DNA of 64,000 nucleotides from an uncultured Planctomycetota bacterium (GCA_963845755.1 CAWJTV010000028.1:381814-445813); one strand, 5' to 3'. Counted from the stretch's first letter, positions 5,400 to 35,536 are shown. Made by a program: numbers and translations. Notes: a model not told the origin generated them from the sequence alone.

Positions 5400-6638
5400 T
5401 CAATTCCGGGACGGCGATCCGAACCCACGCGCCGGCGTGCGTTTCGATTCCGCCGGTTCGGGTACCCAATCGCTCTCCAGCCGGTCGGATCGACGCAGGG
5501 CGATGCGATAGCCCCCACCGACCACGAGCGCGGCGCCGAGAAGCGTCGGGAGGGCGGAATCGCGATCGTCTGAAGGTCTGTGGAGCTGCGAGGAATCGAG
5601 GTCATCGAGCGCCACATCGATCAACTCCATGTCGGCAGCGATGGGGAGCGGACCGAGTTCCGGCGCGGAAGGAGTCCGGAAGACACCCGGGCCGCTCGTG
5701 GACCCACCCGAGGAGTCAGTCGGTTTCCGACTGCCCGGCGAGGATGCCGGGCCTTGCCCTTGCTGCGAGGATGCGGGATTCTGAGGCGAGGATTGCCCAT
5801 AGGGCTTCTGTCCGGCCGCCCCACCGATCGACTGTCCGGCCGCCCCGCCGATCTCTTGAGCGGTCGGACCATTCGGCTGCTGTCCGGCTGCGCCAGCCGG
5901 CGGAGTCTGAGCGCCGGACTGGGTCTGCGCCGGCTGTCCGGTCGGCGGCTGTTCGGTTGCAGGCGGTTGAGTCGGCTCGACCTGATCGATGGTTTTCGGA
6001 GGCTCAGGACCAACCGGGCTGACGGGCTGGTCAAGCGAACTGGGACTCGGATTGGCACTGCCTTGCCCAAATTGGTTCACCACCAACGGCACTTCCTGGA
6101 AGGTTGGGACCTGGACCATGCTATTCGAGACCGGGGGCGCGATCATCGTGGACAGTTGAAAGTGGTTCGTTGTCAGCGGAGGAGGCGTGATCCAAACCGT
6201 TCCGGTGAGCAACGTCCCGTTGTTCAGAGGCGTCTCGGTTGCGGAAAGCAAGGGCGGGATTAACGGCGTGATCGGCAAGGACAACAGGCCCGATGATACC
6301 GTCAACGGGCCCGCCGAGGTGACCACGTTGGCGGAACCGATGCTCAGGTTGTCAAGCAGACCGGTGACCGGAAGTGCGGATTGAAGGAACTGGACCCCGC
6401 CTGTACCGGTCGTTTGAACGCTCACACCCGAGCCCAAACTTTCGAACATCCCCGCCGCATTCCCGGGTTGCCTACTCGCGCCAATGGCGACCGGCTCCGA
6501 GGCCGGTTCGGGGACGATGGGCGGCCCGGCCGACAAAAGGTGGTGCGCCTCCAGCTCCTCATGGATCAAGGGAAAACGGCTGGAACGCCGTGATTCCATG
6601 CGCTCGCTCGCCGGACGAATCAAGTCCAAGCTCCTCAT
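5400..6638 (-). CDS. Planctomycete extracellular protein with low-complexity P/Q/G linker and C-terminal membrane anchor
   Basis: EELEAHHLLS (LExRxLL-like motif), QSIGGAAG repeats, LPTLLGAALVVGGGYRIALRR C-terminal TM. Confidence 0.75.
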   Translation of the reverse strand: MRSLDLIRPASERMESRRSSRFPLIHEELEAHHLLSAGPPIVPEPASEPVAIGASRQPGNAAGMFESLGSGVSVQTTGTGGVQFLQSALPVTGLLDNLSIGSANVVTSAGPLTVSSGLLSLPITPLIPPLLSATETPLNNGTLLTGTVWITPPPLTTNHFQLSTMIAPPVSNSMVQVPTFQEVPLVVNQFGQGSANPSPSSLDQPVSPVGPEPPKTIDQVEPTQPPATEQPPTGQPAQTQSGAQTPPAGAAGQQPNGPTAQEIGGAAGQSIGGAAGQKPYGQSSPQNPASSQQGQGPASSPGSRKPTDSSGGSTSGPGVFRTPSAPELGPLPIAADMELIDVALDDLDSSQLHRPSDDRDSALPTLLGAALVVGGGYRIALRRSDRLESDWVPEPAESKRTPARGFGSPSRN

Positions 6639-21034: not shown

Positions 21035-21563
21035 CTATTTCGCTGCAGTTACCCCGCCGGGCGCGCCCACCGAATCGTCCATCGGGTGTTCCCAGCGACA
21101 GATCATGTCGTAGTCTTCCAGGCGGAAGAACCAGACCGGGTTGCGGCCGAGAAGCGTGTAGCGGACCAGCGCGGGCGACTCCGCAGGCTCAAGATGCAAG
21201 CGAACTGTGAACTGGCGCGTGTTTTCGACATCCGACTGACCGAGAATCGCGAACGAGTTGAGCCGCTGATCGGGCCGCCGCTGTTTGTCCAGGAACTTCA
21301 CCGAGCTTGAATCGAAGGAAGCCGGCAACGGCGACGGGGCGTCGCGCCGTGCTCGGGGCCGATTCCAACGCCTGACGCGCCTCGGTCCAACCTGGCAGGT
21401 ATCCCGGCGGAGCCGGAGGTTTGTTCCACGCGTTGCAAGCGGACGTGCTGATGGCCCCCATCGCATAGAACGCCGGGTTGCCAAGCCCGCGAATCGGCAT
21501 GAGGAACATCGAGGATTCGACGTCGGCGTCGTGAGGTTCTTCATGGCGAGGAGATCCGGTCAT
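21035..21563 (-). CDS. Putative lipoprotein, paralog 1 of 3; frameshift near 21345
   Basis: STSAC...YLPGWTEARQALESA / FLDKQRRPDQRLNSFAILG...RQFTVRLHL...YTLLGRNPVWFFRLEDYDMIC; start uncertain. Confidence 0.75.
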
Positions 21564-21743: not shown

Positions 21744-22185
21744 ATGTTGCGCTTTCACGCTCGTCGATGGTCAGGCACCGCCGCCGCGGCATGTTTGATG
21801 CTCGCGACCCTGGCCGCGCTGTTACCAGCGGAAGCGCGCGGGCTGCGATCATCCATGGGTTAAGCGTACGGTCCTATCCGATACACTGAATGACCTGAGC
21901 GTCCTCGCGCCGGTCCGTCAAGGGTCAAGTTCCGATTCCGGTTTCCCCGACGAGCCCCGGCGCCGATCTCCATGCGCGGGGGGAATGTGTTCCCGATCGC
22001 CGGACATGCCGATGACCTCCCCGGACTCCACTCCGGACCGTGTCGAGCTATGGGGCAACCTGCCTGACAGTTTCCAGCCGAAGGCCCCTGCATTGACTGC
22101 GGCATGCCCCTTTCTGGATCGCCCGCGTCCGGCTAGGACGCTTCGACCTATCGAACGTCCTCCGCGCATGATCCCCCCCTTTTGA
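21744..22185 (+). CDS. Secreted Cys-containing leader protein ending in ERPPR (DUF2946/CruR-like); frameshift near 21840
   Basis: Signal MLRFHARR...LAALLPAEAR; shifted frame GCDHPWV...SPCAGGMCSR...LRPIERPPRMIPPF. Confidence 0.7.
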
Positions 22186-22521: not shown

Positions 22522-23557
22522 ATGAAAAAGTTTCGAAGCGGTTTCACGTTGATCGAACTACTCGTGGTCATCGCCATCATCGCCGTCCTGATCGCCCTCT
22601 TGTTGCCCGCGGTCCAGGCGGCTCGCGAGGCCGCGCGCGGGCGCAATGCAACAACAACCTCAAGCAGATCGGGCTGGCCTGCCACAACTACTTGAGCTCT
22701 TTCCAGTGCCTGCCCTTCGGCAAGGGTGCGAGCTACACCAATGGGGCGCAATACTACGCTCGCTGGTCCACCCACAGTCAGCTCTTGATGTACATCGAGC
22801 AAGGGACTCTCTTCAACAGCATCAACTTCAGCCTTGCGCCATCAACGCCGGGCATGGCCGGTGATGTCGCGTTCATGCCCCCGTACACGCAGCCGGAGAA
22901 CCTGACCAGTTCATTGACCCAGGTGTCCGCGTTCCTCTGCCCGACGGACGCGACCGCGCCGACTCCCGGCTGGCCGGGCTGCAATAACTACCTCGGCAAC
23001 ATGCAGACCTGGGCCTGCGATCTGGGAGATAATAACCCCTCTCAGGTTTCCCCGGGCGATGCGCCCATGGGATCTTCTACTTCTGGAGCTCGGTGGGTCT
23101 CGCCAAGATCACGGATGGCACGAGCAACACGGCCTTCTTCAGCGAAAAACTGCGAGGCAACGGGACGCGAGACGGCGACGCCCGCTCCGACTCGCTGATC
23201 ACGGCGGCGCCGACTAGCCTGAATGCTACCTTCCAGACGTGCACGAGCACGCCGCTGACCGCCTTGCGGCTCACTCACGCCCAGGGCGCAAGTTGGGTCA
23301 TGGGCGAAATGTGCTGCACCCAGTATAACCACGTTTCCACTCCGAACACCAAGACCTGCGCCGGGCTGGGTTTTCTCAACAGCAACATGGCCAACATGCC
23401 GATGCAGGTTCCCCCTTCGAGCAACCATCCGGGAGGCGTGAACGTCCTCTTTGGCGACGGAGGCGCACGCTTCGTCAAGACCAGCGTTTCGCTCGTGACC
23501 TGGCGCGCCTTGGGCACGCGGGACGGGAACGAGACCATTTCCTCAGATTCGTATTGA
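22522..23557 (+). CDS. DUF1559 prepilin-type N-terminal cleavage protein with H-X9-DG C-terminus; 2 frameshifts (~22640, ~23070)
   Basis: [81 protein letters not shown]. Confidence 0.95.
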
Positions 23558-23568
23558 CGGGGGCTACC

Positions 23569-24033
23569 ATGCGAATTCTCTGGAACGAGCCTCGGCCGGC
23601 GATTCTTGCGGCTCTGTCACTGCTCCTCCTCCTGGGAACGGGGGGATGCGGGACCGGCAAGAGCGAGGGTTTACCCTCGGACGATGTAGGACGCCGGGCG
23701 CTCGAGGCGGCGCTAAACGTCTGGCGCGAGGGCGGAAAGACCGGGCCCGTGGCGGGCATGGAGCCTCCAGTCGAGGTCCACGACACGCCCTGGAGCCTGG
23801 GCGACCGCCTGTCCTCGTACGAGATCGTTGGCGAGACTAAGAGCGCCGCGGAGATGAGGTTCACCGTCCGGCTCTCGCTCGCCAAACCGGAGCGGGTGCA
23901 GGAGGTGCAGTATTACGTACTCGGCCGCGATCCGGTGATGGTCTTTCGCGATGAAGACTACCAGCGGAATATCAACATGGTAAACGGGCCGTCGGTCACC
24001 AAACCCGCGAAGTCGGGGAAGAGACGACGATAG
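23569..24033 (+). CDS. Putative lipoprotein, paralog 2 of 3
   Basis: Lipobox-like LLLLGTGGC; GRRALEAALNVWR; MRFTVRLSL; YYVLGRDPVMVFRDEDY. Confidence 0.85.
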   Translation: MRILWNEPRPAILAALSLLLLLGTGGCGTGKSEGLPSDDVGRRALEAALNVWREGGKTGPVAGMEPPVEVHDTPWSLGDRLSSYEIVGETKSAAEMRFTVRLSLAKPERVQEVQYYVLGRDPVMVFRDEDYQRNINMVNGPSVTKPAKSGKRRR

Positions 24034-24209: not shown

Positions 24210-24738
24210 GTGAGACGGCATCCACCGACACCGCCAAGCACGAGCCTGATCATCGCAGCATTCGCGGCGATGATATGTCCGTCATGCGGCACGGTGGCTG
24301 CGCGAGAAGCCGCCGAGTTTGCTGCCCGACCCGCGGGTGGCCCGGCAAGCGGTCGAGAACGCCCTGGAGGAGTGGCGGGCCTCTCCCGATGTCGATACCA
24401 CGGCCGCCGACCGATCCCTGATCTTCGTGGATCGTCAACGACGACCGGGTCAACGCTTACGGGAATTCGCAGTCCTGGGGGACTCGGTGGTCGACAACCT
24501 CCGGCGTTTCGTAGTGAGGCTGTCCCTCGCGGAACCTGAGGAATCGACGCTCGCCGCTTACTACGTTTTCGGCCGTGTGGGCAACGACCCGATCTGGGTG
24601 TATCGTGCCGAGGAATTCGATATGATGATGAATATGGACATGGCGCCCGATGATCCGGCCCCGCCCGCGAACCCATCCAGGCCCCAGGGGTCGTCGAAAC
24701 CCGAGGCGGGGCGCCACCATGAGAAGAAGGCATACTGA
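24210..24738 (+). CDS. Putative lipoprotein, paralog 3 of 3, with Met-rich tail; frameshift near 24290
   Basis: LIIAAFAAMICPSC signal; LPDPRVARQAVENALEEWR; FVDRQRRPGQRL; RFVVRLSL; DPIWVYRAEEFDMMMNMDM. Confidence 0.8.
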
Positions 24739-26331
24739 CCGTGACGCGACGGGCGGTGGTCACCTTTCCGCACTTGCAACACGCCTGGGAAGGGGAATGG
24801 TGAGGATAAGGTCGATGGCGGGCGGCTCCGTCGGACACTGGATCTGGTCGGCCTTGCGATTAGCCGAGGTCCGACTGCGCGTTCCGATCGTGCTGGTCGT
24901 GGCCGCGGTGGTGATCGGCCGATGGGAGGTTATCCGCAACTACTGGGACCGTTTCACGCGATCCTCGACGGCCCAGAACACCTTCAAGCTCCCGATCTCG
25001 AGCGACACGGAATACTTCTGCCCGATGGATCCCGGGGTCGTGTCGCACGGTCCCGCGCGTTGCGGCGTTTGCAACATGGCGTTGGTCCGCCGCAAGCGCG
25101 GTGATGCGGTAATGCTGCCCGATGGGGTCGTCGCCCGGATGCAGCTATCGCCGTACCGGATCCAGCTCGCCGGCATCCAGACTGCTCCGTTGGGCTATCT
25201 CCCCCTGAACCGGGAGTGGTCCGCCGCGGGGTTGGTCACCCGCGAGGCCGATGACTCGGTAACCATCACGATGGATGTGCCCGGTCGTCAGGCGCCTTGG
25301 GTCGAGGAAGGTCAACGGGTCGACATCGCGTGTGCCGACCTCCCCGGCCAATGGCCGCTCACGGGCAGGATCCGATCGCTGCCGCGCCGCGTGGTTCAAG
25401 GGCGGGAATTTGCTCGTGTGACCGTCGCGATCGAGAAACCGCCGCAAACGCTCCGGGGCGGCATGATCGCGGTCGTGACATTCCGGATCGCCATGGCCGC
25501 GCTGGATCCGTTCCGCACGATGCCGAGCGGCCCGCCCGCCCGGAAGCGCGGGGAGCCGGGCGCATCTACCTCTGTCACGATCACCCGGAGACGATCGCCC
25601 TCGAGGCGGGACGCTGCCCGATCGACGGCAAGAACCGCATGCCGCAGACGTTGGGTGAACTGGAGCGGGTGCAATGGTGGTGTCCGATGCATCCGGAGGT
25701 CACCGCCGAGAATGCAGGCGCCGTTTGCGAACCATGCGGCGGGATGGTCTTGAAACCCAAGGTGGTCTTCTTCGCACCCAAGGGCCAGGTGCTGGCCCTG
25801 CAACAGTCGGCGGTAGTCGACACCGGCGTGCGGAAAGTGGTCTTCGTCGAGACGATGCCCGGTATGTTTGACGCAGTGGAGGTGGTCCTAGGACCGCGTT
25901 GCGGCGACTTCTACCCGGTCGTGCGTGGCATCGAGCCGGGCCAAGAGGTCGCGGTCGCCGGCGCCTTCCTGCTCGACGCCGAGACCCGGCTGAATCCTAG
26001 CTTGGCCGCCGGCTACTTCGGTGCAGGCCGTGGCGATCGTGCGGCCCACGGGGCGGCACCGGCGACCACTACGAGGCGATCTTCCCCCGCTGACGGCCCA
26101 TCCAACGCATCCGGCGATCCCTTCTGGGGACTGGATCCTGCGGATCGTACCCTGGCCCAAGGTCAGTCAAACTGCCCCGTCACGGGTCGGCCGCTGGGCT
26201 CGATGGGCACTCCCAAACGTTACGTCGTTTCCGGCCGGGTGGTATTCCTTTGCTGTGCGGGGTGCGAATCCCGGCTCCTTCGGGAGCCGGCGAAATACCT
26301 GGCAAAGCTGCCCGCCCCGGGTCGCCCATGA
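24719..26331 (+). CDS. CusB-like RND periplasmic adaptor with several heavy-metal-binding/YHS-like domains; frameshift near 25560
   Basis: YFCPMDP..CGVCNM; LSPYRIQLAGIQT; LRGGMIAVV; CPIDG; WCPMHP..CEPCGGM; SAVVDTG..GAFLLDAETRL; CPVTG...LCCAGC. Confidence 0.85.
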
Positions 26332-29300
26332 TTGACGCGGTCATCACGTTCTCGATCCGGCATCGGGCGGCTGTCATCGCAGCCAGCCTGCTCCTGGCCG
26401 CGCTGGGCGGCTGGGCCGTGTGGGATACTCCGGTGGACGCGATCCCGGATCTCTCGGAGAACCAGGTGATCGTCTTCACGGAGTGGAACGGGCATGGTCC
26501 GCGCGAGATCGAGGACCAGGTGACGTATCCGCTGACTCTCGGCCTGCGCGGGATCCGGGGCGTCCGGGTCGTCCGGTCGTCGAGCGACGTCGGCTTCTCG
26601 ACGATCAGCGTCATCTTCGAAGACGCGATCCCGGTCGCCGAGGCGCGACGGCGGGTAACCGAGCGATTGGCACAGGTCCAGGGGAAGTTGCCGGCCGGGA
26701 TTCTATCCGAGATCGCACCGGACTCTCCTGCAACCGGCCAGATCTTCTGGTACACGGTGGAGGGGGGCAAGCTCGACCTGGGCCGGCTTCGCGCGATCCA
26801 GGATTGGTATGTCCGCCCGCAGCTCGGCTCCGTGCCCGGCGTGGCGGACGTATCCAGCGTGGGTGGTTTCCCGATCGAGTATGAAGTGGCGCCGGACCCC
26901 GACCGGCTCCGGCTCTTCGGCGTGACGCTCCAGGAAGTCCTCGACGCCGTGTCCTCGTCGAACGCCGCGACGGGCGGCCAGGTGGTCAACAAGGGGAATG
27001 CGGAGTACGTGGTGCGCGGTGTCGGCTGGCTGGGGGCCTCTCCCAATCCCGGCGACGATTCGTTCGACCCTCGGCGGCGCGATCCGCGACCTGGAAAACG
27101 TCGTCCTCCGCGCACCGGGCGGAGGAACGATCCGGCTGGCGGACGTCGCGACGGTGGCGATCGTCCCCGGCTTCCGTCGCGGTGCCCTGGAGAAAGACGG
27201 CAGCGAGGCCGTCGGCGGCGTGATCCTGATGGCGCACGGCGAGAACCCGCTCGAGGTCACGCGCCGGATCAAGACGAAGATCCGCGAGCTCCAGATCGGC
27301 CTGCCGCGCGATGTCCGGATCGTGCCCTTCTACGACCGCACCCCGCTGATCGAAGGGGCCATCAGCACCGTCAGCGGCACCGTGCTGGAAGCAATGGTCT
27401 CGGCCTCGTTGTGCGTCCTGGTGATCTTGCTCCATGTGCGCACCTCGCTCGTCATCGTCGGCACGCTGCCACTGGCCGCGCTGTCGTCGTTCCTGATCAT
27501 GGGCGTCTTGCGACGGTCGGGCGTCGTGGACATCGCGGCCAACGCCATGTCGCTGGCGGGGATCGCGATCTCGATCGGCGTGCTGGTCGACTCGTCGGTC
27601 GTGATGGCCGAGAACGTCATGCACCGGCTCAAGGAGCGCTTCGGCCCGGAACCGGTGCGCGGCGACGTTCGCGAAGTGGTCTTGCCGGCCTGCCTGGCCG
27701 TCGGTCAACCCATCGTCTTCTCGGTGGCGATCATGGTGCTGTCGTTCCTCCCCGTCTTCGCACTGGGAGGTATTGAAGGCAAGATGTTCCATCCCCTGGC
27801 CTATACCAAGACATTCGCGCTGGCATCGGTCGCGGTGCTCGCGGTGACCCTGGTCCCGGCTCTGTGTACGCTCTTCATCCGAGGCCGACTGCGGTCGGAG
27901 CGGGAGAATCCGCTGGTCCGCGGCGTGATCGAGGTCTATCGCCCGGTCCTCTCTTTCTTGATGGATCGCCCGGCGGTGCTGGCCGGGATTCTGGGGATAA
28001 CCTTCCTCCTGGGATTCGCCCCATTGGGCAGCCGAACGATCTTCCTCGGTACGCTCGTCGTGGCGATGGTGGCGATGGCGGTCTGCGCGTCGAGCCGTTG
28101 GGGTGCGGTCCTGGGTCCCGCGTTTCTGGTACTGGTCGCACTGCTGATCGAACCAAGGATCACGCCTCTGATACGCGAATTCATGACGCCGCTCGACGAG
28201 GGAATGGTGATGGACATGCCCATCACGGTCCCGCGGGCCTCGGTATCGGAGTCGGTCGACGACCTGAAGGCGCGCGACATGGTCTTGTGCCGGTTCCCGG
28301 AGGTGGACATGGTCGTGGGCAAGGCGGGGCGGGCCGAGACGCCGACCGACCCCGCGCCGATGGACATGATCGAGACCATGGTGAATCTCCGGCCGCGCGA
28401 GTTCTGGCCGCGCCGTAAGCTCCGCGCATCCGATGCCTCCGCCCATTGCCTTGCGGTGCTCGATGCCTTGATCGCACGCCAGGTCGTCGCGCCGCCGGTT
28501 GACGCGCAGGCGCGCCGATCCCTCATCGAAGAGGCCGTCGCGCCGGCCTTGACGCAGTTCGACGCGATGTGCCGGGAGTATGCCTATCACCGCAATCAGG
28601 AATTGGTGCGCGAGTCGAGCGGCCTCTCTCCGACCTCGACGCACCCCTCGGATCCCGCCGAGCAGCGGCTGGTCGATCCCTGGCGCCGGCATGTGGAGAA
28701 ACTCGATGACGAACTGCTAATGCGCGCCGCCCCGCTCTTCACGCGGCTGGTGATGGACCAACTCCTGGAGCGTGCGACGATCATCGACCCGGCCGTGGCG
28801 GCGCATCACGCAAACGCGGTCCGCCTCCGTGCGGCGTCGGTCGAGGCCGCCATCTCGGCCATGACGAGGCGTCCATCCGCCATCGCTGGGCACCACCACC
28901 ATTCCGGCGGATATGCCTCGATCCCCCTGCTGGAGCCGCAGCCACAACTCGACGTCGTCCAGGAGGAGCTCTCCCGCCAGTTCAGCCGATGGTTGCTCTT
29001 GTGGCAGGTGGATCGGGACGAGTTGACGCGGTTCGGCGGCGAGCTGGACAATGCCGTCCCGATGCCGGGCTGGACGAACGTCTGGACGATGCCGATCCAG
29101 AACCGAGTCAACATGCTGACAACCGGCGTGAATTCGCCGATTGGCATCCGGGTCCTCGGACGCAACCTCGAAGACGTCGTCCGCGGCTCGGAGGAGGTTG
29201 CGCGGGTCGTGAAGGGCATTCCTGGGGCCGTTGACGTCGTGGCCGACCCGATCCGCGGCAAGCCTTACATCGAAATCCGGCTCGACCGCGAGCGGGCCGC

Positions 29301-30333
29301 CCGAGTCGGCGTTCGAGCCGGAGAGGTCAACGCGCTGATCGAGATCGCCCTGGCCGGCAAGGTCGTGGCGACGACCGTCGAAGGACGCGAACGACACTCG
29401 GTCGTCGTCCGCTATCCCCGTGCTCGTCGCGAAGACGAGGACTCGGTGCGGAACCTGCTCGTGACCGCCTACGGTGTTTCCCGCGGGCCAGCCTCGGGTT
29501 CGACCTCGACGCCTCCCGATCCGCCTTCGAGCCAGATCCCTCTCTCGGAAGTGGCCGAGATCCGCGTGGTCGAGGGGCCAGCAACAATCAAGGGTGAAAA
29601 TGGGCTGTTGCGCAATTATGTGAGGCTCAGTGCCCGCGGCCGAGATTTCGCCGACCTCGTCGAGGAGGCGCGCGCCGCCGTGGCTCGCGAGGCCCGTCTG
29701 CCCGACGGAGTTTATCTCGAGTGGACCGGACGGTTCGAGCACGAGCTCCGTGCCCGAAGGCGGCTAACCCTGGTCGTGCCCGTCGTGGTCGTCCTGATCT
29801 TCCTGATCCTCTACTGGACCTATCACGACGCGGCCGACGCCATGCTGATGATGCTGGCGGTGCCCGGCGCGATCGCAGGGGGGCTCCTCTTCCAATGGTT
29901 CCTGGGCTTGAAGCTCTCGGTGACGGTCTGGGTCGGCTACATCGCCTGCTTCGGCATGGCCACGTCGACCGGAATCATCATGCTCGTCTATCTGCGCGAG
30001 GCCGTCGAGCGCGCCGGCGGCCTGGAGCGGATCAGCCTGCAAGGGCTGCGCCAGGCGGTCCTGGATGGTGCCGTCCATCGGCTCCGGCCCAAGCTGTTGA
30101 CCGAAGGCACGGTCGTCATCGGCCTGGCCCCGATGCTCTGGTCCAGCGGAGTGGCGTCCGAGATCATCCGGCCCATGGCCGCCCCCGTCCTCGGTGGCAT
30201 CCTGGTCGCCGATGAAGTCATCGACCTGTTCTTGCCTATCTTGTTCTACTGGGTGCGCCGACGGCGGTGGTTGAGGCTGCATGCTCACAGCCGGATGGTT
30301 GAACCCGACGCTCAACCCATTCCTGAGTCCTGA
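26328..30333 (+). CDS. cusA: CusA/SilA-type heavy-metal RND permease (Cu+/Ag+); frameshift near 27075
   Basis: PVDAIPDLSENQVIV; EDQVTYPL; NAMSLAGIAISIGVLVD; EGKMFHPLAYTKT; Met-triad equivalents DMPIT, PMDMIET, NRVNMLTTG; RLRPKLLT. Confidence 0.93.
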
Positions 30334-30983: not shown

Positions 30984-33900
30984 TCACGGCTCGTTGAGAG
31001 CCTTGGCAACCACCGTCGCGATCGTGTTGGCGTGGACATACACCGCTTCCAGCTTGCCAGCCGGACCGATCAGGAAGACCGAAGGGATCACTTGAACGTG
31101 ATAAGCATCCTGAGCGCCTCCCTCAGGCCAGTCACCCAGGAAACCTTGTGTCCATCGGAGTCCTTGCTCAGCGGCGACGTTGCGTGATGCCTCCTTGTCG
31201 CCGTCGAGACTCAGGCTCACCATCGCGAATCGTTCGTCCGCGCCGAAGCGGTCATGAACGGCCTTGAGCTCGGGCAACTCAGCGATGCACGGCGCACACC
31301 AGCTCGCCCAGAAGATGAGCAACACGTGCTTGCCCCGATAATCCTGGAGCTTGATCCGACGACCATCGAGCGACGCGGCCTTAAACGGTGGTGCCAGCTC
31401 TCCGATCTTGAGCATCCGCCTCGGCCTGGGCCGCAGTATGCCGAGATCGAATGGCTGGCCACTCGCTGCGCCGGGGACCTCGGGAATGCGGAACTGGCGG
31501 AACGCGTGGGCGGTTCGTTCGGGAGACCGGACGCGCATAGAGATCGGGTCAGTCGTGTAGGTCAGTGTCAATTGGTAGTCTCCGGGTGGAAGGTCCTCAA
31601 CCCGAACGGTTCCGTCCGATTGGAGCGGAGCCCACTGAAGCTGGAACCAATCCCGGCGATATGCCCGTCCCTCGGGGGAGGCCCGCCATTTTCTGGCCCA
31701 CTCGATCATCGACCCATCGCGGCGGGCGAGGAGCTCTTGGGGATAGGGGATCATTGGTCGATCGCTCCCGATATTGAACGCGGAAAACGACGTATAGTCG
31801 GCATTCGGATCGAAGCCGAGAGGCGGCGCGATCCTGGCCACCAAGGCGCGACCTGATCCACCCATCTTGACCTGGGCCACTTCTCCGGACTTGACCTCGA
31901 CGAGCGTTCCGTTCGTTGATGCCTGAAGGCCTGACGCCCGCCTCTCGTATTGAAACGCAACCCGCACGTCTCCCGGGATGACGCGATCGAAGATGAAGCG
32001 GCCTCGTGCATCGGCTTTCGTCCTGCCTGAAGCCAAGACATAGGGTATGTCGCGATTGGCGATGCGATCGGAACCATAGCGGATCTCGGCACCCGATGCC
32101 GGCTTGGCCCCCGTGCGGGCGAACCCTTCGAGACGACCCCACGGACCGGCGGTGATCGTAGAATTCTTCTCGAGGGCCGCTCGATCGACCTCGGCATAGA
32201 ACTCGGGATGGACGACGATCACGGCCCACGCTTTCCCGGCGGGGCCGGGCTCGCGGAGGCTCCGGAAGCGTCCCTGAGCATCGGTCTTCACAATGGCCTG
32301 GTCCTCCACGGGTCGAATCTGACCATCCTCGATATGAACCCTGGGCAGGGGGGATGGACCCGCAATCATCGGATAGGTCACGACGACTTCCGCCCCTTCC
32401 AGGGGCGTGGCGTCGGGTCGGTGCACGATGCCCGTGACCAAGACGCCTTGCGGCTTCTCGGCCTTCGTCAGCTTGACGTCATATTCCACCTGCCCCTCAT
32501 CGCTCTGGAAGACGCGCGACTCGAACGGTTCGTACCCCTTCGCCTTGATCCGGAGCCGGAACTGGTTCGCCTTCTCGGTGTCGAGCGAGGCTTGCAGGTA
32601 TCCCTGGTCCACAAAGCTGCGCGAATTAGCATTCCACGACACTTTGCCGGTATCGCCTTTCACGATGCCAACCTCGAGCTCAGCCTTATCGATGGGATTG
32701 TCGGTAACGGCGTCGCGGACATGACCGCTGATCGACAGCTCGCGCCTGAGCGTCAGCACGATCTCACCGGAATCGGGCGTGGCCCTCTGCTGGAAGACAT
32801 CCGAATAACCGGTGCGACTGGCATCGACGAGAACGGGATCCGCCGGAGCATCCTCCCACCGAAACCGGCCGTCGGACCTGGACTTGAGGAACACCCTCGG
32901 AAATCGGCGGCCGCGCCAGGTGTCGATGTGGACGAAAGCGTCGGGGATCGGTCGATTCTGCGTATCCACCACCCGGCCCGCGAGGACATGCGGAGGTCCC
33001 AGTGTCACGACGACCGGCTCGACCCGGTCCGTGGCTGCAACCGGCTTCATCTCCGGCGCGTGGCCCCGGGCCTTGACTCGAAGCATCATCCGTTTCGGAC
33101 GAACGTGCGGAAATCGGAACTGCCCCTGAGCATCGGTGATCGACAAGGGCGCATCGTCGTAGGGGCCCGGGTCGCTCGCTTCAAAGCAGATGACCTCGGC
33201 GCCCGCGATCGGCTTGCCCGCCTGGTCCGAGACTGTACCGGCGATCGCGACCCCCCGGATCATGACCTGGCGATCCGTGAAATCGCGCAACGCCTGCATC
33301 GGCTGTTCGTCCGGCTTGGGTGGATTCGATGGCCTCGGCTGGCCGTGCTTCCGCGGATAGGAGTCCCCATCCGCGACATAATCCGGGTGCGAGAGGAAGA
33401 GGTAGGCGAACGTCATGTTGCGGAAGGAGCGGCCACGCCACCGGCCTTGCTGGTCGGTCTGAGCGTCCACCATCCAGGCCAGCTCATGTTTCTCCTTCTT
33501 CTCGCCGAGGTAGCCCGAGATCCGAACCTTCACTCCCGCCATCGGATGTCCCTGTTCATCAACGACCGTGCCACCCAGTGTTTGCTCGCTGGGCAATAAC
33601 TCGACCGTGAACTCCCCGGGGATCTTCGCAAATCGCGGATTGTTCTGGGCAAATGAGTGGCGCTGCTGGACGTAGCCCTCGGCCCAGACGTCGAGATTCA
33701 GCGTGTCCTGAAACGAGTCGTGGGACAGATTGATGCGGATCCGGCCGTCGCGGTCCGTTTTCCACTCCGGATGCACGAGATCCCGCGTGGAACGGACCGT
33801 CGCCGAGGCCAGCGGCTTGCCAGTGTCCTTGCCAACGACGATGACCTCGATCGCCCCTTGGGGTGCGTTGACCACGGTCTTCGCCTTCTCATCCGGCGTG

Positions 33901-35108
33901 GCCTGAGTTGTCTCCGGCGGCACAATGGCCTTCGTCGCCGCGCGGGCCAGCTCGATCGAGCCGAGCAACCCGGTGATGGCCAGGAGAACCGCGGCGACCG
34001 CCAGTCTCTCCGGCCACGGCAGCAGGCATCGCGACGATCCCCGGCTCTCCTCGATCCACGCCAGCCGCCGGCCGAGCTTCGTGATGTGCGCCATTGCCAG
34101 TCCAAGACCCGGTTCGGGTCGCCGGACCAATCCCGAGGCGACCGCGATCAATGACGCTCGGTACGCAGAAGCCCCTCCCATTGCAAAGATACACACGTCA
34201 TCGCACGCTTGTTCGCGCACCTCGCGGAGAATCCGGCCCAACGGCCAGATCAGCGGATGCGGCCAGTAAAAGATATGCACGAGCCTGCGCAACAGATTCC
34301 AGCCGTAATCCCCGCGACGGACGTGGCTCAGCTCGTGCAAGATCACCGCGTCAATGAGTCCGGCGCCCGGCGTCTCGGCCAGCGATCGGGGCAGGATGAC
34401 TGCCGGCTGAAGCCATCCGGCAGCGATCGGGATCGAGATCCGATCCGTGCTCATTAACGCGACACGTCGGGAGATCCCCATCCAGCTCCGCCAACGTTCC
34501 AGGGCCGCCAACCACCCCGAATTCTCGATCGACTCGCTCTCGCACCTCAGCCGGCCGATGGCCAGCAGCGAGACGGCCAGCCTCAGCAGGAGCAGGGCAA
34601 CGACTGAAAGATAGACTCCCACGAGCACCTCGAAAACTCCGGGTCTGCGGGTCGGATTCGATTCCTCGGCACTCGGCGGAGTGAGCATTTGCGGCTGCGC
34701 AATCCGCACCGGCGCGGGATCGATCGATGTCGCACTCCCGATTGCGGAGGCTTCAATCGGGCGAACTGCCCTCCGCGGCAACGATCGCCCAGGCAACCTG
34801 TGCGTTTCGGTCGTCGCCCGATCGTCGAGAAGTGGGATGCTCCGGACAAAATCGGCCGTCTCGTCCGAGGCGATCGCTCGGGGCGGGAGGACCGTCAGTC
34901 GCAACCGGGGCGATGCCCAACTCGTCAGGGGCAATACCACCAGTCCCGCCAGGCAGGCATTCCAGAGCGCCGAGCGGACCAGAACACGGCGACGCCCCAG
35001 CACGAGATGGGCCGCGAGGGCCAACGTGAGGAGCACCGTGGACTTGATCGCGACGTCGGTCGCAACGCCAATCGCCTCTGGAAAAGCCAACCTCAGGAAA
35101 TCGACCAT
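30984..35108 (-). CDS. BlaR1/peptidase M56 family protein with carboxypeptidase-regulatory-like repeats and C-terminal TlpA thioredoxin
   Basis: N-terminal TMs; ILHELSHVRRGD; WPHPLIW; REQACDD; repeated GxVxDxxGxPIxGA...TDxxGRF; FWASWCAPC. Confidence 0.92.
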   Translation of the reverse strand: MVDFLRLAFPEAIGVATDVAIKSTVLLTLALAAHLVLGRRRVLVRSALWNACLAGLVVLPLTSWASPRLRLTVLPPRAIASDETADFVRSIPLLDDRATTETHRLPGRSLPRRAVRPIEASAIGSATSIDPAPVRIAQPQMLTPPSAEESNPTRRPGVFEVLVGVYLSVVALLLLRLAVSLLAIGRLRCESESIENSGWLAALERWRSWMGISRRVALMSTDRISIPIAAGWLQPAVILPRSLAETPGAGLIDAVILHELSHVRRGDYGWNLLRRLVHIFYWPHPLIWPLGRILREVREQACDDVCIFAMGGASAYRASLIAVASGLVRRPEPGLGLAMAHITKLGRRLAWIEESRGSSRCLLPWPERLAVAAVLLAITGLLGSIELARAATKAIVPPETTQATPDEKAKTVVNAPQGAIEVIVVGKDTGKPLASATVRSTRDLVHPEWKTDRDGRIRINLSHDSFQDTLNLDVWAEGYVQQRHSFAQNNPRFAKIPGEFTVELLPSEQTLGGTVVDEQGHPMAGVKVRISGYLGEKKEKHELAWMVDAQTDQQGRWRGRSFRNMTFAYLFLSHPDYVADGDSYPRKHGQPRPSNPPKPDEQPMQALRDFTDRQVMIRGVAIAGTVSDQAGKPIAGAEVICFEASDPGPYDDAPLSITDAQGQFRFPHVRPKRMMLRVKARGHAPEMKPVAATDRVEPVVVTLGPPHVLAGRVVDTQNRPIPDAFVHIDTWRGRRFPRVFLKSRSDGRFRWEDAPADPVLVDASRTGYSDVFQQRATPDSGEIVLTLRRELSISGHVRDAVTDNPIDKAELEVGIVKGDTGKVSWNANSRSFVDQGYLQASLDTEKANQFRLRIKAKGYEPFESRVFQSDEGQVEYDVKLTKAEKPQGVLVTGIVHRPDATPLEGAEVVVTYPMIAGPSPLPRVHIEDGQIRPVEDQAIVKTDAQGRFRSLREPGPAGKAWAVIVVHPEFYAEVDRAALEKNSTITAGPWGRLEGFARTGAKPASGAEIRYGSDRIANRDIPYVLASGRTKADARGRFIFDRVIPGDVRVAFQYERRASGLQASTNGTLVEVKSGEVAQVKMGGSGRALVARIAPPLGFDPNADYTSFSAFNIGSDRPMIPYPQELLARRDGSMIEWARKWRASPEGRAYRRDWFQLQWAPLQSDGTVRVEDLPPGDYQLTLTYTTDPISMRVRSPERTAHAFRQFRIPEVPGAASGQPFDLGILRPRPRRMLKIGELAPPFKAASLDGRRIKLQDYRGKHVLLIFWASWCAPCIAELPELKAVHDRFGADERFAMVSLSLDGDKEASRNVAAEQGLRWTQGFLGDWPEGGAQDAYHVQVIPSVFLIGPAGKLEAVYVHANTIATVVAKALNEP

Positions 35109-35109
35109 C

Positions 35110-35536
35110 TCATGCTCCCGGGCGTTTGCCCTTCCGCTCCTGACCGCGCCGGCCCCCCTCTCGCTTCGGGGCCTCGGGTGCCGCTCGTCGCAACTCATCA
35201 AGTTGTTCCGGCGTGATCGTCTCATCCTCGATCAGGCGGAGGACCAGGTCTTCGGCCGACCCGCCGAAGAACCGGCCGAGCAGGTCGCGCAGCGCGTGAC
35301 CCTGCGCCTTCCGCCTACCGATCACCGCGCGGTAGACATACGACTTGCCTCGAACTTCATGGCGAAGGTAGCCCTTCGATTCCAGGACGCGCAAGAATCG
35401 TCCGTACGGTCGAATCGTGCAGCGACTCGGCCAACGCCCCGCGGACCTGCTCCGCGGTCGCATCACCGAGCTGCCATAGCGCCTCCATCACCTGCGATTC
35501 GCGGCCGGTCAGAGTCTCTGACGCTGGACGGGCCAT
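35110..35536 (-). CDS. BlaI/MecI/CopY family repressor; frameshift near 35400
   Basis: MARPASETLTGRESQVMEALW...STVRT / LRVLESKGYL...YVYRA...FFGGS. Confidence 0.9.

Follow-up and report, generated by a model that had tools for sequence, protein, structure and literature searches.

The 64,000-nucleotide stretch of DNA analyzed here (the window, whose first letter is position 1) comes from an uncultured Planctomycetota bacterium (assembly G000, contig region C28:381814-445813; 14.3 Mb in 49 contigs, 88% complete, ~64% GC), the closest relatives of which are Isosphaeraceae and other Planctomycetota, and it encodes a CusB-type adaptor that lacks both the lipoyl and the alpha-hairpin domains. Heavy-metal resistance-nodulation-division (RND) pumps are understood as three-part exporters that cross the whole cell envelope. 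The main finding of the present study is the company this reduced adaptor keeps: its gene is accompanied by a DUF1559 pilin-like gene, two lipoprotein genes, a leader open reading frame (ORF), and the gene of an altered CusA, with no TolC gene. The domain loss goes with a recurrent gene set of single origin, in which CusA has lost the acidic residue at the position of Glu939 (E939) of Escherichia coli CusA but keeps its methionine site, and in which purifying selection operates. The reading that we favor, with a probability of about 0.38, is that CusA and the truncated adaptor would hand Cu(I) between the pilin-like protein and CusA, most likely inward under copper scarcity. The features concerned are the following.

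21035..21563 (start approximate), minus strand: second copy of lipoprotein A, tail CRWEHPM, divergent from the leader, frameshifted.
21744..22185, plus strand: leader ORF with a signal-like N terminus, CxxxxC, 55 amino acids (aa), and RPP; a DUF2946/CruR-like arrest-peptide candidate; frameshift near 21838.
22522..23557, plus strand: prepilin-type DUF1559 (SBP_bac_10) protein from a subfamily rich in Met and Cys (GEMCC, MANMxMQ), with frameshifts near 22635 and 23070.
23554..24033, plus strand: lipoprotein B, with a lipobox-like GC and the tail NINMVN where the family has NMDN or a short tail; unassigned in Pfam and NCBIfam.
24210..24738, plus strand: lipoprotein A, ending in MMMNMDM where the family has HW(E/D)HxM, with a frameshift near 24290.
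24797..26331, plus strand: hairpin- and lipoyl-less CusB-type adaptor (frame, Pfam, CusB alignment, AlphaFold2 model of a homologue); from the N to the C terminus a hydrophobic anchor, HMBD, beta-barrel, two Cys modules, membrane-proximal domain, and C-terminal Cys module.
25019..25078, plus strand: Cys module 1, Pfam HMBD (CPMDP...CxxC-M), in 119 of 120 homologues.
25244..25255, plus strand: junction lacking the lipoyl and alpha-hairpin domains, a short turn between two barrel strands (alignments, model).
25573..25746, plus strand: Cys modules 2 and 3 (CHDH/CPID; CPMHP/CxxC, Pfam HMBD), missing from many hairpin-less members.
26143..26328, plus strand: C-terminal Cys module (CPVTG...CCxxC), located on a linker modeled with low confidence.
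26328..30333, plus strand: heavy-metal efflux (HME)-RND transporter of the CusA type, equivalents of M573/M623/E625/M672, D405, and K984 kept; frameshift near 26975.
29965..29967, plus strand: Ser codon at the position of the E. coli CusA proton-relay Glu939 (alignment).

The reading frame of the adaptor agrees with that described in the initial annotation (...GIQTAPLGYLPLNREWSAAGLVTREADDSVTITMDV...WVEEGQRV), except that the start proposed there, at 24719, is not borne out and lies near 24797. The same annotation had the frame skip the lipoyl and hairpin domains at ~25240-25260, and alignment with a full-length paralogue of the same genome (locus L001 on G000 contig C43, 537 aa) confirmed this, with the junction at ~25244-25255: residue ~150 of the window adaptor corresponds to residue 156 of the paralogue and residue 154 to residue 301, and ~145 residues of the paralogue fall between two neighboring strands of the window adaptor. 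When a profile of 24 homologues was aligned with E. coli CusB (3ne5_B), positions 83-161, 162-240, and 341-411 corresponded to CusB 45-118, 242-319, and 324-394, respectively, with the first two stretches being weak alone (2.2 and 1.7 bits) and the whole chain reaching an E value of 4.6e-5. CusB 119-241 (~123 aa) has no counterpart, in line with the deficit of >100 aa that had been claimed. Neither missing domain was detected by Pfam or in an AlphaFold model. Pfam HlyD_D23 covers only model positions 143-214 of 214 on the window adaptor, under the cut-off, compared with 2-214 on the paralogue, and in the AlphaFold2 model of a 77%-identical homologue, P0001, strand 149-160 runs through a short, helix-free turn straight into strand 166-173. 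The mean predicted local distance difference test score (pLDDT) of this model is 66 and its predicted TM-score 0.39, with block means of 79-91 over residues 151-240; its best Foldseek matches are ZneB, CusB, MexA, and MacA, all at low TM-score.

The gap is common to all of the 120 best homologues, so it is not a strain-specific lesion, and none of them matched a lipoyl/hairpin hidden Markov model (HMM) built from 47 planctomycete seeds at E<=1. These 120 are the best of 508 adaptor relatives found among 2741 longer-protein candidates; they share 48-77% identity and are 454-534 aa long, save one 916-aa fusion. Nonsynonymous to synonymous substitution ratios (dN/dS) of 0.10-0.28 in five of five close pairs indicate purifying selection. 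Against the curated TIGR01730/CusB cut-off of 94.9 bits, two hairpin-less homologues scored 52.4 and 37.2 and the full-length paralogue 112.2. Reduction has gone further in three adaptors that have also lost the beta-barrel (L071:8010-8888, L078:8016-8927, and L079:1712-2640), leaving the HMBD, the membrane-proximal domain, and the C-terminal Cys module, and these still adjoin CusA, DUF1559, and lipoprotein genes. In current annotation, hairpin-less adaptors appear as ordinary copper/silver efflux adaptors or as hypothetical proteins.

Inspection of reads near ~25250 had been proposed as a check, and a 302-base short-read contig of run X1 covers 25101-25402 across the junction with two substitutions and no gap, showing that the missing segment is no product of assembly. 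Assembly collapse was ruled out by this contig together with the gap shared by 120 of 120 homologues. A one-base frameshift that splits the adaptor gene at 25557 is probably an assembly error, because an X1 contig (depth 2.7, a single contig) differs there only by one additional G behind 25557. Run X1 is possibly related to the source sample and serves as a check of the assembly, not as independent biology. About seven frameshifts fall within the 9-kb module in this assembly; genome-wide, only 55 of 80 DUF1559 genes are intact in G000, and single-gene breaks in this frameshift-rich assembly are therefore probable errors. The hairpin-less locus is intact in the cultured Tundrisphaera lichenicola and Paludisphaera soli (L044, L065).

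To describe the gene company, 119 loci were compared: L001, 78 distinct loci from the best 80 of 132 confirmed matches, and 40 from a search of 300 genomes of the phylum, which returned mostly full-length adaptors and was used only for picking these 40 from its stronger matches. The adaptor is hairpin-less in 72 loci, full-length in 46, and truncated in one (L076 and L114 are the same contig). Among the 62 hairpin-less loci with at least 2.5 kb of upstream sequence, the lipoprotein family lies within 3.5 kb in 59 and DUF1559 occurs in 59, while a TolC HMM that drew on 32 of the 39 OEP matches in the genome found a TolC-like gene within 3 kb in none (one lies at 6.8 kb). The 42 full-length loci with the same upstream coverage include no lipoprotein and no DUF1559 gene, whereas 34 have a TolC-like gene within 3 kb. 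None of the 39 OEP matches of the genome lies on the contig of the window. From the absence of both TolC-contacting domains, the 0/62 versus 34/42 TolC genes, and the lack of an OEP match on the contig, we infer that the adaptor makes no contact with TolC, and the initial claim that it cannot recruit TolC is well supported in this sense.

The association holds at the level of genomes. Of 200 genomes drawn evenly from the class, 31 contain a hairpin-less adaptor (30 counted by a single junction-spanning match, and one of two unclear cases that were fetched, the other being full-length), and all 31 also carry the lipoprotein family, which is present in 32 of the 200 and stands alone in one. In three hairpin-less loci without adjacent lipoproteins the pair sits elsewhere in the same genome, and in one near-complete genome the two halves of the module are 2 Mb apart. 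Within the family to which the window belongs, 27 of the 48 genomes sampled have the hairpin-less form. A full-length CusB homologue accompanies it in the window's own genome and in 8 of 10 hairpin-less genomes tested, the two without being draft assemblies. These full-length planctomycete adaptors (e.g. L001) are the closest relatives, with the same anchor, HMBD, and Cys modules and a similar CusA periplasmic insert, but they differ in keeping the lipoyl and hairpin domains and mostly also E939 and an adjacent TolC, and in having no DUF1559/lipoprotein partners or leader in the loci examined.

Other genes also lie near these loci. Neighbor clustering revealed no recurring signaling gene beyond ubiquitous kinases and sigma factors. 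A CMD/AhpD-like gene with CxxC adjoins the module in five loci (L035, L039, L057, L059, and L077) and is also found at L110:15079-16545. The own-genome full-length CusB/CusA pair (L001:4087-12815) has a TolC-like gene transcribed divergently and a Cys-rich ORF (5824-6321) upstream of the adaptor; Cys-rich upstream ORFs that do not match the leader family of hairpin-less loci also exist at full-length L113 and L117. Downstream of CusA, window 30984-35466 on the minus strand encodes a large putative BlaR1/M56-type protein, which appears to end in a thioredoxin-like CxxC domain, and a putative regulator of the BlaI/CopY type; the BlaR1/M56-type neighbor was seen in only 3 loci and hence stands outside the module.

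The transporter retains its family identity, as the CusA of L044 passes TIGR00914 with 856 bits against a cut-off of 701. In 44 CusA ORFs linked to hairpin-less adaptors, M573, M623, and E625 are kept in 43 each, M672 in 42, D405 in 42, and K984 in 37 (with 6 gaps), and M391 and M1009 are kept as well. The docking regions seem retained, with a clade-specific insert of ~12 aa. The position of E939, as set by alignment with 3ne5_A, is different: it is occupied by Ser in 25, Ala in 11, and Gly in 1, with an acid in none of the 37 alignable sequences (of the other 7 ORFs, 5 have truncated rows and 2 are both frameshifted and misaligned), whereas 39 CusA linked to full-length adaptors have Glu in 20, Asp in 10, Ser in 2, Ala in 1, and Gly in 1, with 5 gaps (30/34 acidic). 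Point mutants of E. coli CusA at D405, E939, and K984 are transport-dead, according to the available text of PMC8092243. In a CusA tree (FastTree, 81 tips, midpoint root; without L032, L034, and L114), all 43 loci with a hairpin-less or truncated adaptor form one clade with support of 1.0 and a stem of 0.27, nested among full-length planctomycete CusA.

Some further characteristics of CusA deserve mention. The Cys of a CxFPE motif (window near 28270-28290) is present in 43 of the 44 hairpin-less loci and in none of the 39 full-length ones, and a Cys in the adaptor GxRC motif (window 25894-25905) is clade-typical (30/38); the two might form an inter-subunit disulfide or an extra metal site. A His-rich cluster (window 28891), which 29 of the 44 hairpin-less loci have but none of the 39 full-length ones, sits in a ~200-aa periplasmic insert that is itself common to many full-length planctomycete CusA. 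A hydrophobic insert of ~44 aa follows transmembrane helix (TM) 7 (window 27934-28180) and possibly adds two membrane helices; a motif-distance test for it proved unreliable for full-length loci and was disregarded. In a separate CusA clade (L122, L124, L127, L130, L137, L138, L140, L146, L147, and L149) the K984 position is Cys (IRPC), with one to three Asp in TM10, making another altered proton relay.

By the tests made, the locus lies outside the tripartite CusCBA class and is a reduced HME-RND variant. It resembles CusCBA/SilCBA in the CusA-family transporter above the TIGR00914 cut-off with its methionine triad, in the gene order B then A, and in the barrel, membrane-proximal domain, and N-terminal metal module of the adaptor. 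It differs in the absence of the lipoyl domain, the hairpin, and a linked outer-membrane factor, in the replacement of E939 by Ser/Ala/Gly, in the hydrophobic insert after TM7, and in the linkage of a pilin-like protein, two lipoproteins, and a leader.

The DUF1559 partner has an N_methyl prepilin motif and SBP_bac_10, both above cut-off, and shares with other planctomycete DUF1559/SBP_bac_10 proteins this combination, the C-terminal motif H-X9-DG, and flanking lipoprotein genes. What sets it apart is its place in a rare subfamily, rich in Met and Cys, that is linked with a metal transporter: G(E/D)xCC occurs in 55 of 61 copies and NMx(M/V) in 59 of 61, 6 Met, 7 Cys, and 2 His are invariant among 38 linked sequences, and in the window's own genome only 2 of 103 DUF1559-type C-terminal motifs carry the subfamily motifs. 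Its dN/dS is very low (0.04-0.12). A second Met-rich DUF1559 (GDMSC, MMMGSMANM) is encoded at L110:8191-9258 (G000 C41), in a cluster where further DUF1559 genes are joined by one CMD-family gene, one EF-hand/AhpC-like gene, and a distant lipoprotein; no CusA was found in the 20 kb fetched around it. The ligand of the module would be Cu(I) or Ag(I), to judge from the Met/Cys/His motifs and the ancestry of CusA.

Lipoproteins A and B match no Pfam or NCBIfam family, and a tail like HW(E/D)HxM was recognized by pattern in 52 of 59 copies of type A; its His/Trp/Met/Met composition is reminiscent of the CusF site. A profile search collected 1490 relatives, all of them without annotation, an Atlas search returned unnamed planctomycete clusters only, and a 93-aa single-sequence model (pLDDT 66) had no Foldseek match at E<=0.001 (best Z 4.2); these searches do not amount to a new fold.

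The leader was found through neighbor clustering, and its CxxxxC to RPP spacing is 54-57 aa in 40 of 40 matches. Among loci with at least 4 kb of upstream sequence, 35 of the 57 hairpin-less ones have the family and none of the 40 full-length ones does, with the search limited to fragments ending in an R..PP motif. The DUF1559 gene comes next in all 40, starting 74-605 nt downstream (median 287, n=40; 336 in the window). The copies scanned gave no Pfam (DUF2946) or NCBIfam match, and the nearest named Atlas clusters, DUF2946, CzcI, and DUF6660, are at 0.87-0.89, which is a lead only. The leader resembles the DUF2946 proteins CruR (Bordetella) and CutF (Rhodobacter) in its signal-like N terminus, Cys pair, and fixed spacing to a C-terminal R..PP, as well as in being the first gene of a metal operon with a long gap to the next gene. 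As far as the available texts go, CruR has CxxC, 45 aa, and RAPP and turns off a copper import operon across a 162-bp gap (PMC9426467), and CutF has CxxxC and PPP and turns on a copper oxidase (bioRxiv 2025.02.05.636593). The leader differs from them in having CxxxxC instead of CxxC/CxxxC, a spacing of 54-57 instead of 45, and RPP instead of RAPP. By this analogy it would exert metal-responsive translational control; it points to control by metal but not to the sign of that control. C-over-G bias was rejected as an indicator of Rho control, since values above 1, seen in most of the 40 leader-downstream regions, are also found in 56 of 86 controls (mean 1.09).

The initial annotation counted four Cys modules, and these are indeed present at 25019, 25573-25626, 25681-25746, and 26173-26265; the last might be called YHS-like, a label for which Pfam gave no match. 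Its proposal that they stand in place of the hairpin fails, and the modules are ruled out as a hairpin replacement, because one or more CPM modules were also found in 37 of the 40 full-length adaptors from planctomycetes; many hairpin-less members, for their part, have just one. That the adaptor acts as a tethered metallochaperone is plausible, but the Cys-module argument for it is weak because full-length adaptors share the modules and because modules 2 and 3 are lost in many hairpin-less adaptors.

Complex prediction hints that the adaptor might dock the DUF1559 protein. The pair of adaptor (A2, 45-480) and DUF1559 protein (A3, 30-345) scored 0.49 (0.53, 0.49, and 0.48), compared with 0.00 for the best of three controls, and the runs agree in at least 62% of contacts with a partner pLDDT of at least 88. 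Of 157 solved pairs, 116 reached the mark used for a complex, as did 2 of 215 mismatched ones, and scores of at most 0.60 within the mark came from 18 of the 157 solved pairs and both mismatches; these counts are only rough for our own alignments. We know of no solved complex of this kind, and memory is therefore unlikely to be the cause of the score, but the predicted support is weak.

How these parts might work together can be considered as follows. At low copper the ribosome would stall at the RPP of the leader and the operon would be expressed; the pilin-like DUF1559 protein might then capture Cu(I) on its putative Met/Cys cluster, either at the cell surface or in the periplasm; lipoprotein A and the Cys modules of the adaptor would relay the ion to the methionine triad of CusA; and CusA, with its altered proton relay, would let it pass inward. 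The TolC-free hand-over that forms the core of this scheme is fairly probable, and the inward direction within that core, its least certain part, is little better than a coin toss. Uptake is slightly favored because full-length CusB is usually kept alongside, because E939 is lost, and because the gap behind the leader is CruR-like, none of which is decisive. A bolder version, which we hold as tentative and rather doubtful, is that the pilin-like protein replaces TolC outright, such that the adaptor docks the DUF1559 protein, a carrier handled by pilus or type II secretion system (T2SS) machinery crosses the outer membrane, and a CusA uncoupled by the absence of E939 imports the metal.

Several points weigh against inward hand-over. 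No HME-RND transporter is known to import. Four of 34 full-length loci likewise lack an acid at the E939 position, three of them with a TolC gene alongside, and further acidic residues in TM11/TM12, which the nearest full-length relatives have too, could replace it; the retention of D405 and K984 also suits continued proton coupling. As all hairpin-less CusA fall in one clade, the co-occurrences count as a single event, and the losses of hairpin, TolC, and E939 together with the gain of partners are, as far as the data show, one historical event. The score of 0.49 lies in a range that, without a prior, would be more often wrong than right. The nearest Atlas clusters of the leader include CzcI, and the C-richness test did not tell a CruR-like from a CutF-like mode. 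CutF, a leader of the same class, activates copper detoxification (bioRxiv 2025.02.05.636593, available text), and N_methyl/SBP_bac_10 proteins are a strongly expanded planctomycete family with frequent signal-peptide gene neighbors (available text of PMC8567305).

The alternative that survives best, although we consider it somewhat unlikely, uses the same parts in the outward direction: a proton-driven CusA would load Cu(I) onto the pilin-like protein, which the T2SS/type IV pilus machinery would carry across the outer membrane, for detoxification or for maturing a surface copper protein. The retention of D405, K984, the Met triad, M391, and M1009 in CusA, the exporter function of the known HME-RNDs, the DUF1559 prepilin motif above cut-off, and the activation of detoxification by CutF-type leaders all agree with export, and the adaptor-DUF1559 score (0.49 versus 0.00) suits both directions. 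On the other hand, E939 is lost, a second and costlier efflux route seems less needed where full-length CusB is present alongside (8 of 10 genomes), and the long intergenic gap would poorly suit a CutF-type melting of a nearby ribosome-binding-site hairpin.

It is improbable that a two-component CusBA moves Cu(I) from the cytoplasm or membrane to the periplasm, with the DUF1559 protein and lipoproteins as co-regulated sponges that make no contact with the pump and with the adaptor as a tethered chaperone, the role proposed in the initial annotation. The absence of a nearby TolC gene, the Met/His/Cys-rich partners, the DUF1559/lipoprotein genes that are sometimes far from the pump genes, and the three loci with adaptors cut to HMBD, membrane-proximal domain, and C-terminal Cys module would all be compatible with it, but the strict co-retention in 31 of 31 genomes and the DUF1559 dN/dS of 0.04-0.12 suggest a specific partner rather than a sponge, and the predicted adaptor-DUF1559 contact, weak as it is, points the same way.

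Less probable still is a tripartite pump in the manner of Borrelia BesA, in which a TolC encoded elsewhere is borrowed through the CusA docking domain. BesA is likewise a hairpin-less adaptor beside an RND transporter, and BesABC functions hairpin-free, but in the available text of PMC3807786 BesA, part of a drug pump, keeps the lipoyl domain, the proposed remaining contact with TolC, and is co-transcribed with the TolC gene besC. The 39 OEP matches in the genome, the 8 of 42 full-length loci that are also TolC-free within 3 kb, and the seemingly retained CusA docking regions would allow borrowing, whereas the adaptors of the present clade lack the lipoyl domain and, in three members, the barrel, with TolC within 3 kb in 0 of 62 loci. 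Another soft metal as the ligand, or an inactive pump turned into a sensor or scaffold that transports nothing, is slightly more remote again: the E939 loss and the clade-specific His cluster (29/44 versus 0/39) and Cys (43/44 versus 0/39) of CusA might speak for it, but CusA conserves D405, K984, and the whole of the Cu(I)/Ag(I) methionine site, and no signaling gene recurs beyond ubiquitous kinases and sigma factors. An assembly collapse or decaying pseudogene, which the seven or so frameshifts in the module might suggest, has a negligible probability and is refuted for the family by the X1 contig across the junction, the 120 of 120 like homologues, and the intact L044 and L065, and with such breaks frequent assembly-wide (55/80 DUF1559 intact), only the copy of this strain could be broken.

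The module, including the pairing of DUF1559 with CusA, was not described in the literature searched, a search whose coverage excludes most subscription papers. In their available texts, adaptor reviews name BesA and EmrA as reduced forms, and no adaptor without a lipoyl domain was found described there (PMC4446572, PMC13328181, PMC8277102). The clade identified in the present study keeps the metal site yet drops every adaptor domain that reaches TolC, going beyond BesA and in some members dispensing with the barrel as well; it thereby outlines how small such an adaptor can be and hints at another role for CusA. Because hairpin-less adaptors are annotated as copper/silver efflux, counts of metal resistance in soil planctomycetes may be misinterpreted. 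The DUF1559 family, which has dozens of copies per planctomycete genome and no assigned function, now has one subfamily tied to a metal transporter and a putative metal-sensing leader, and the Met/Cys-rich motifs of this subfamily give a concrete ligand hypothesis that is testable in Tundrisphaera lichenicola P12 and Paludisphaera soli JC670. If true, the swap of a pilin for TolC would represent a new route of metal traffic through the envelope and would give the planctomycete DUF1559 expansion its first assigned ligand and membrane partner.

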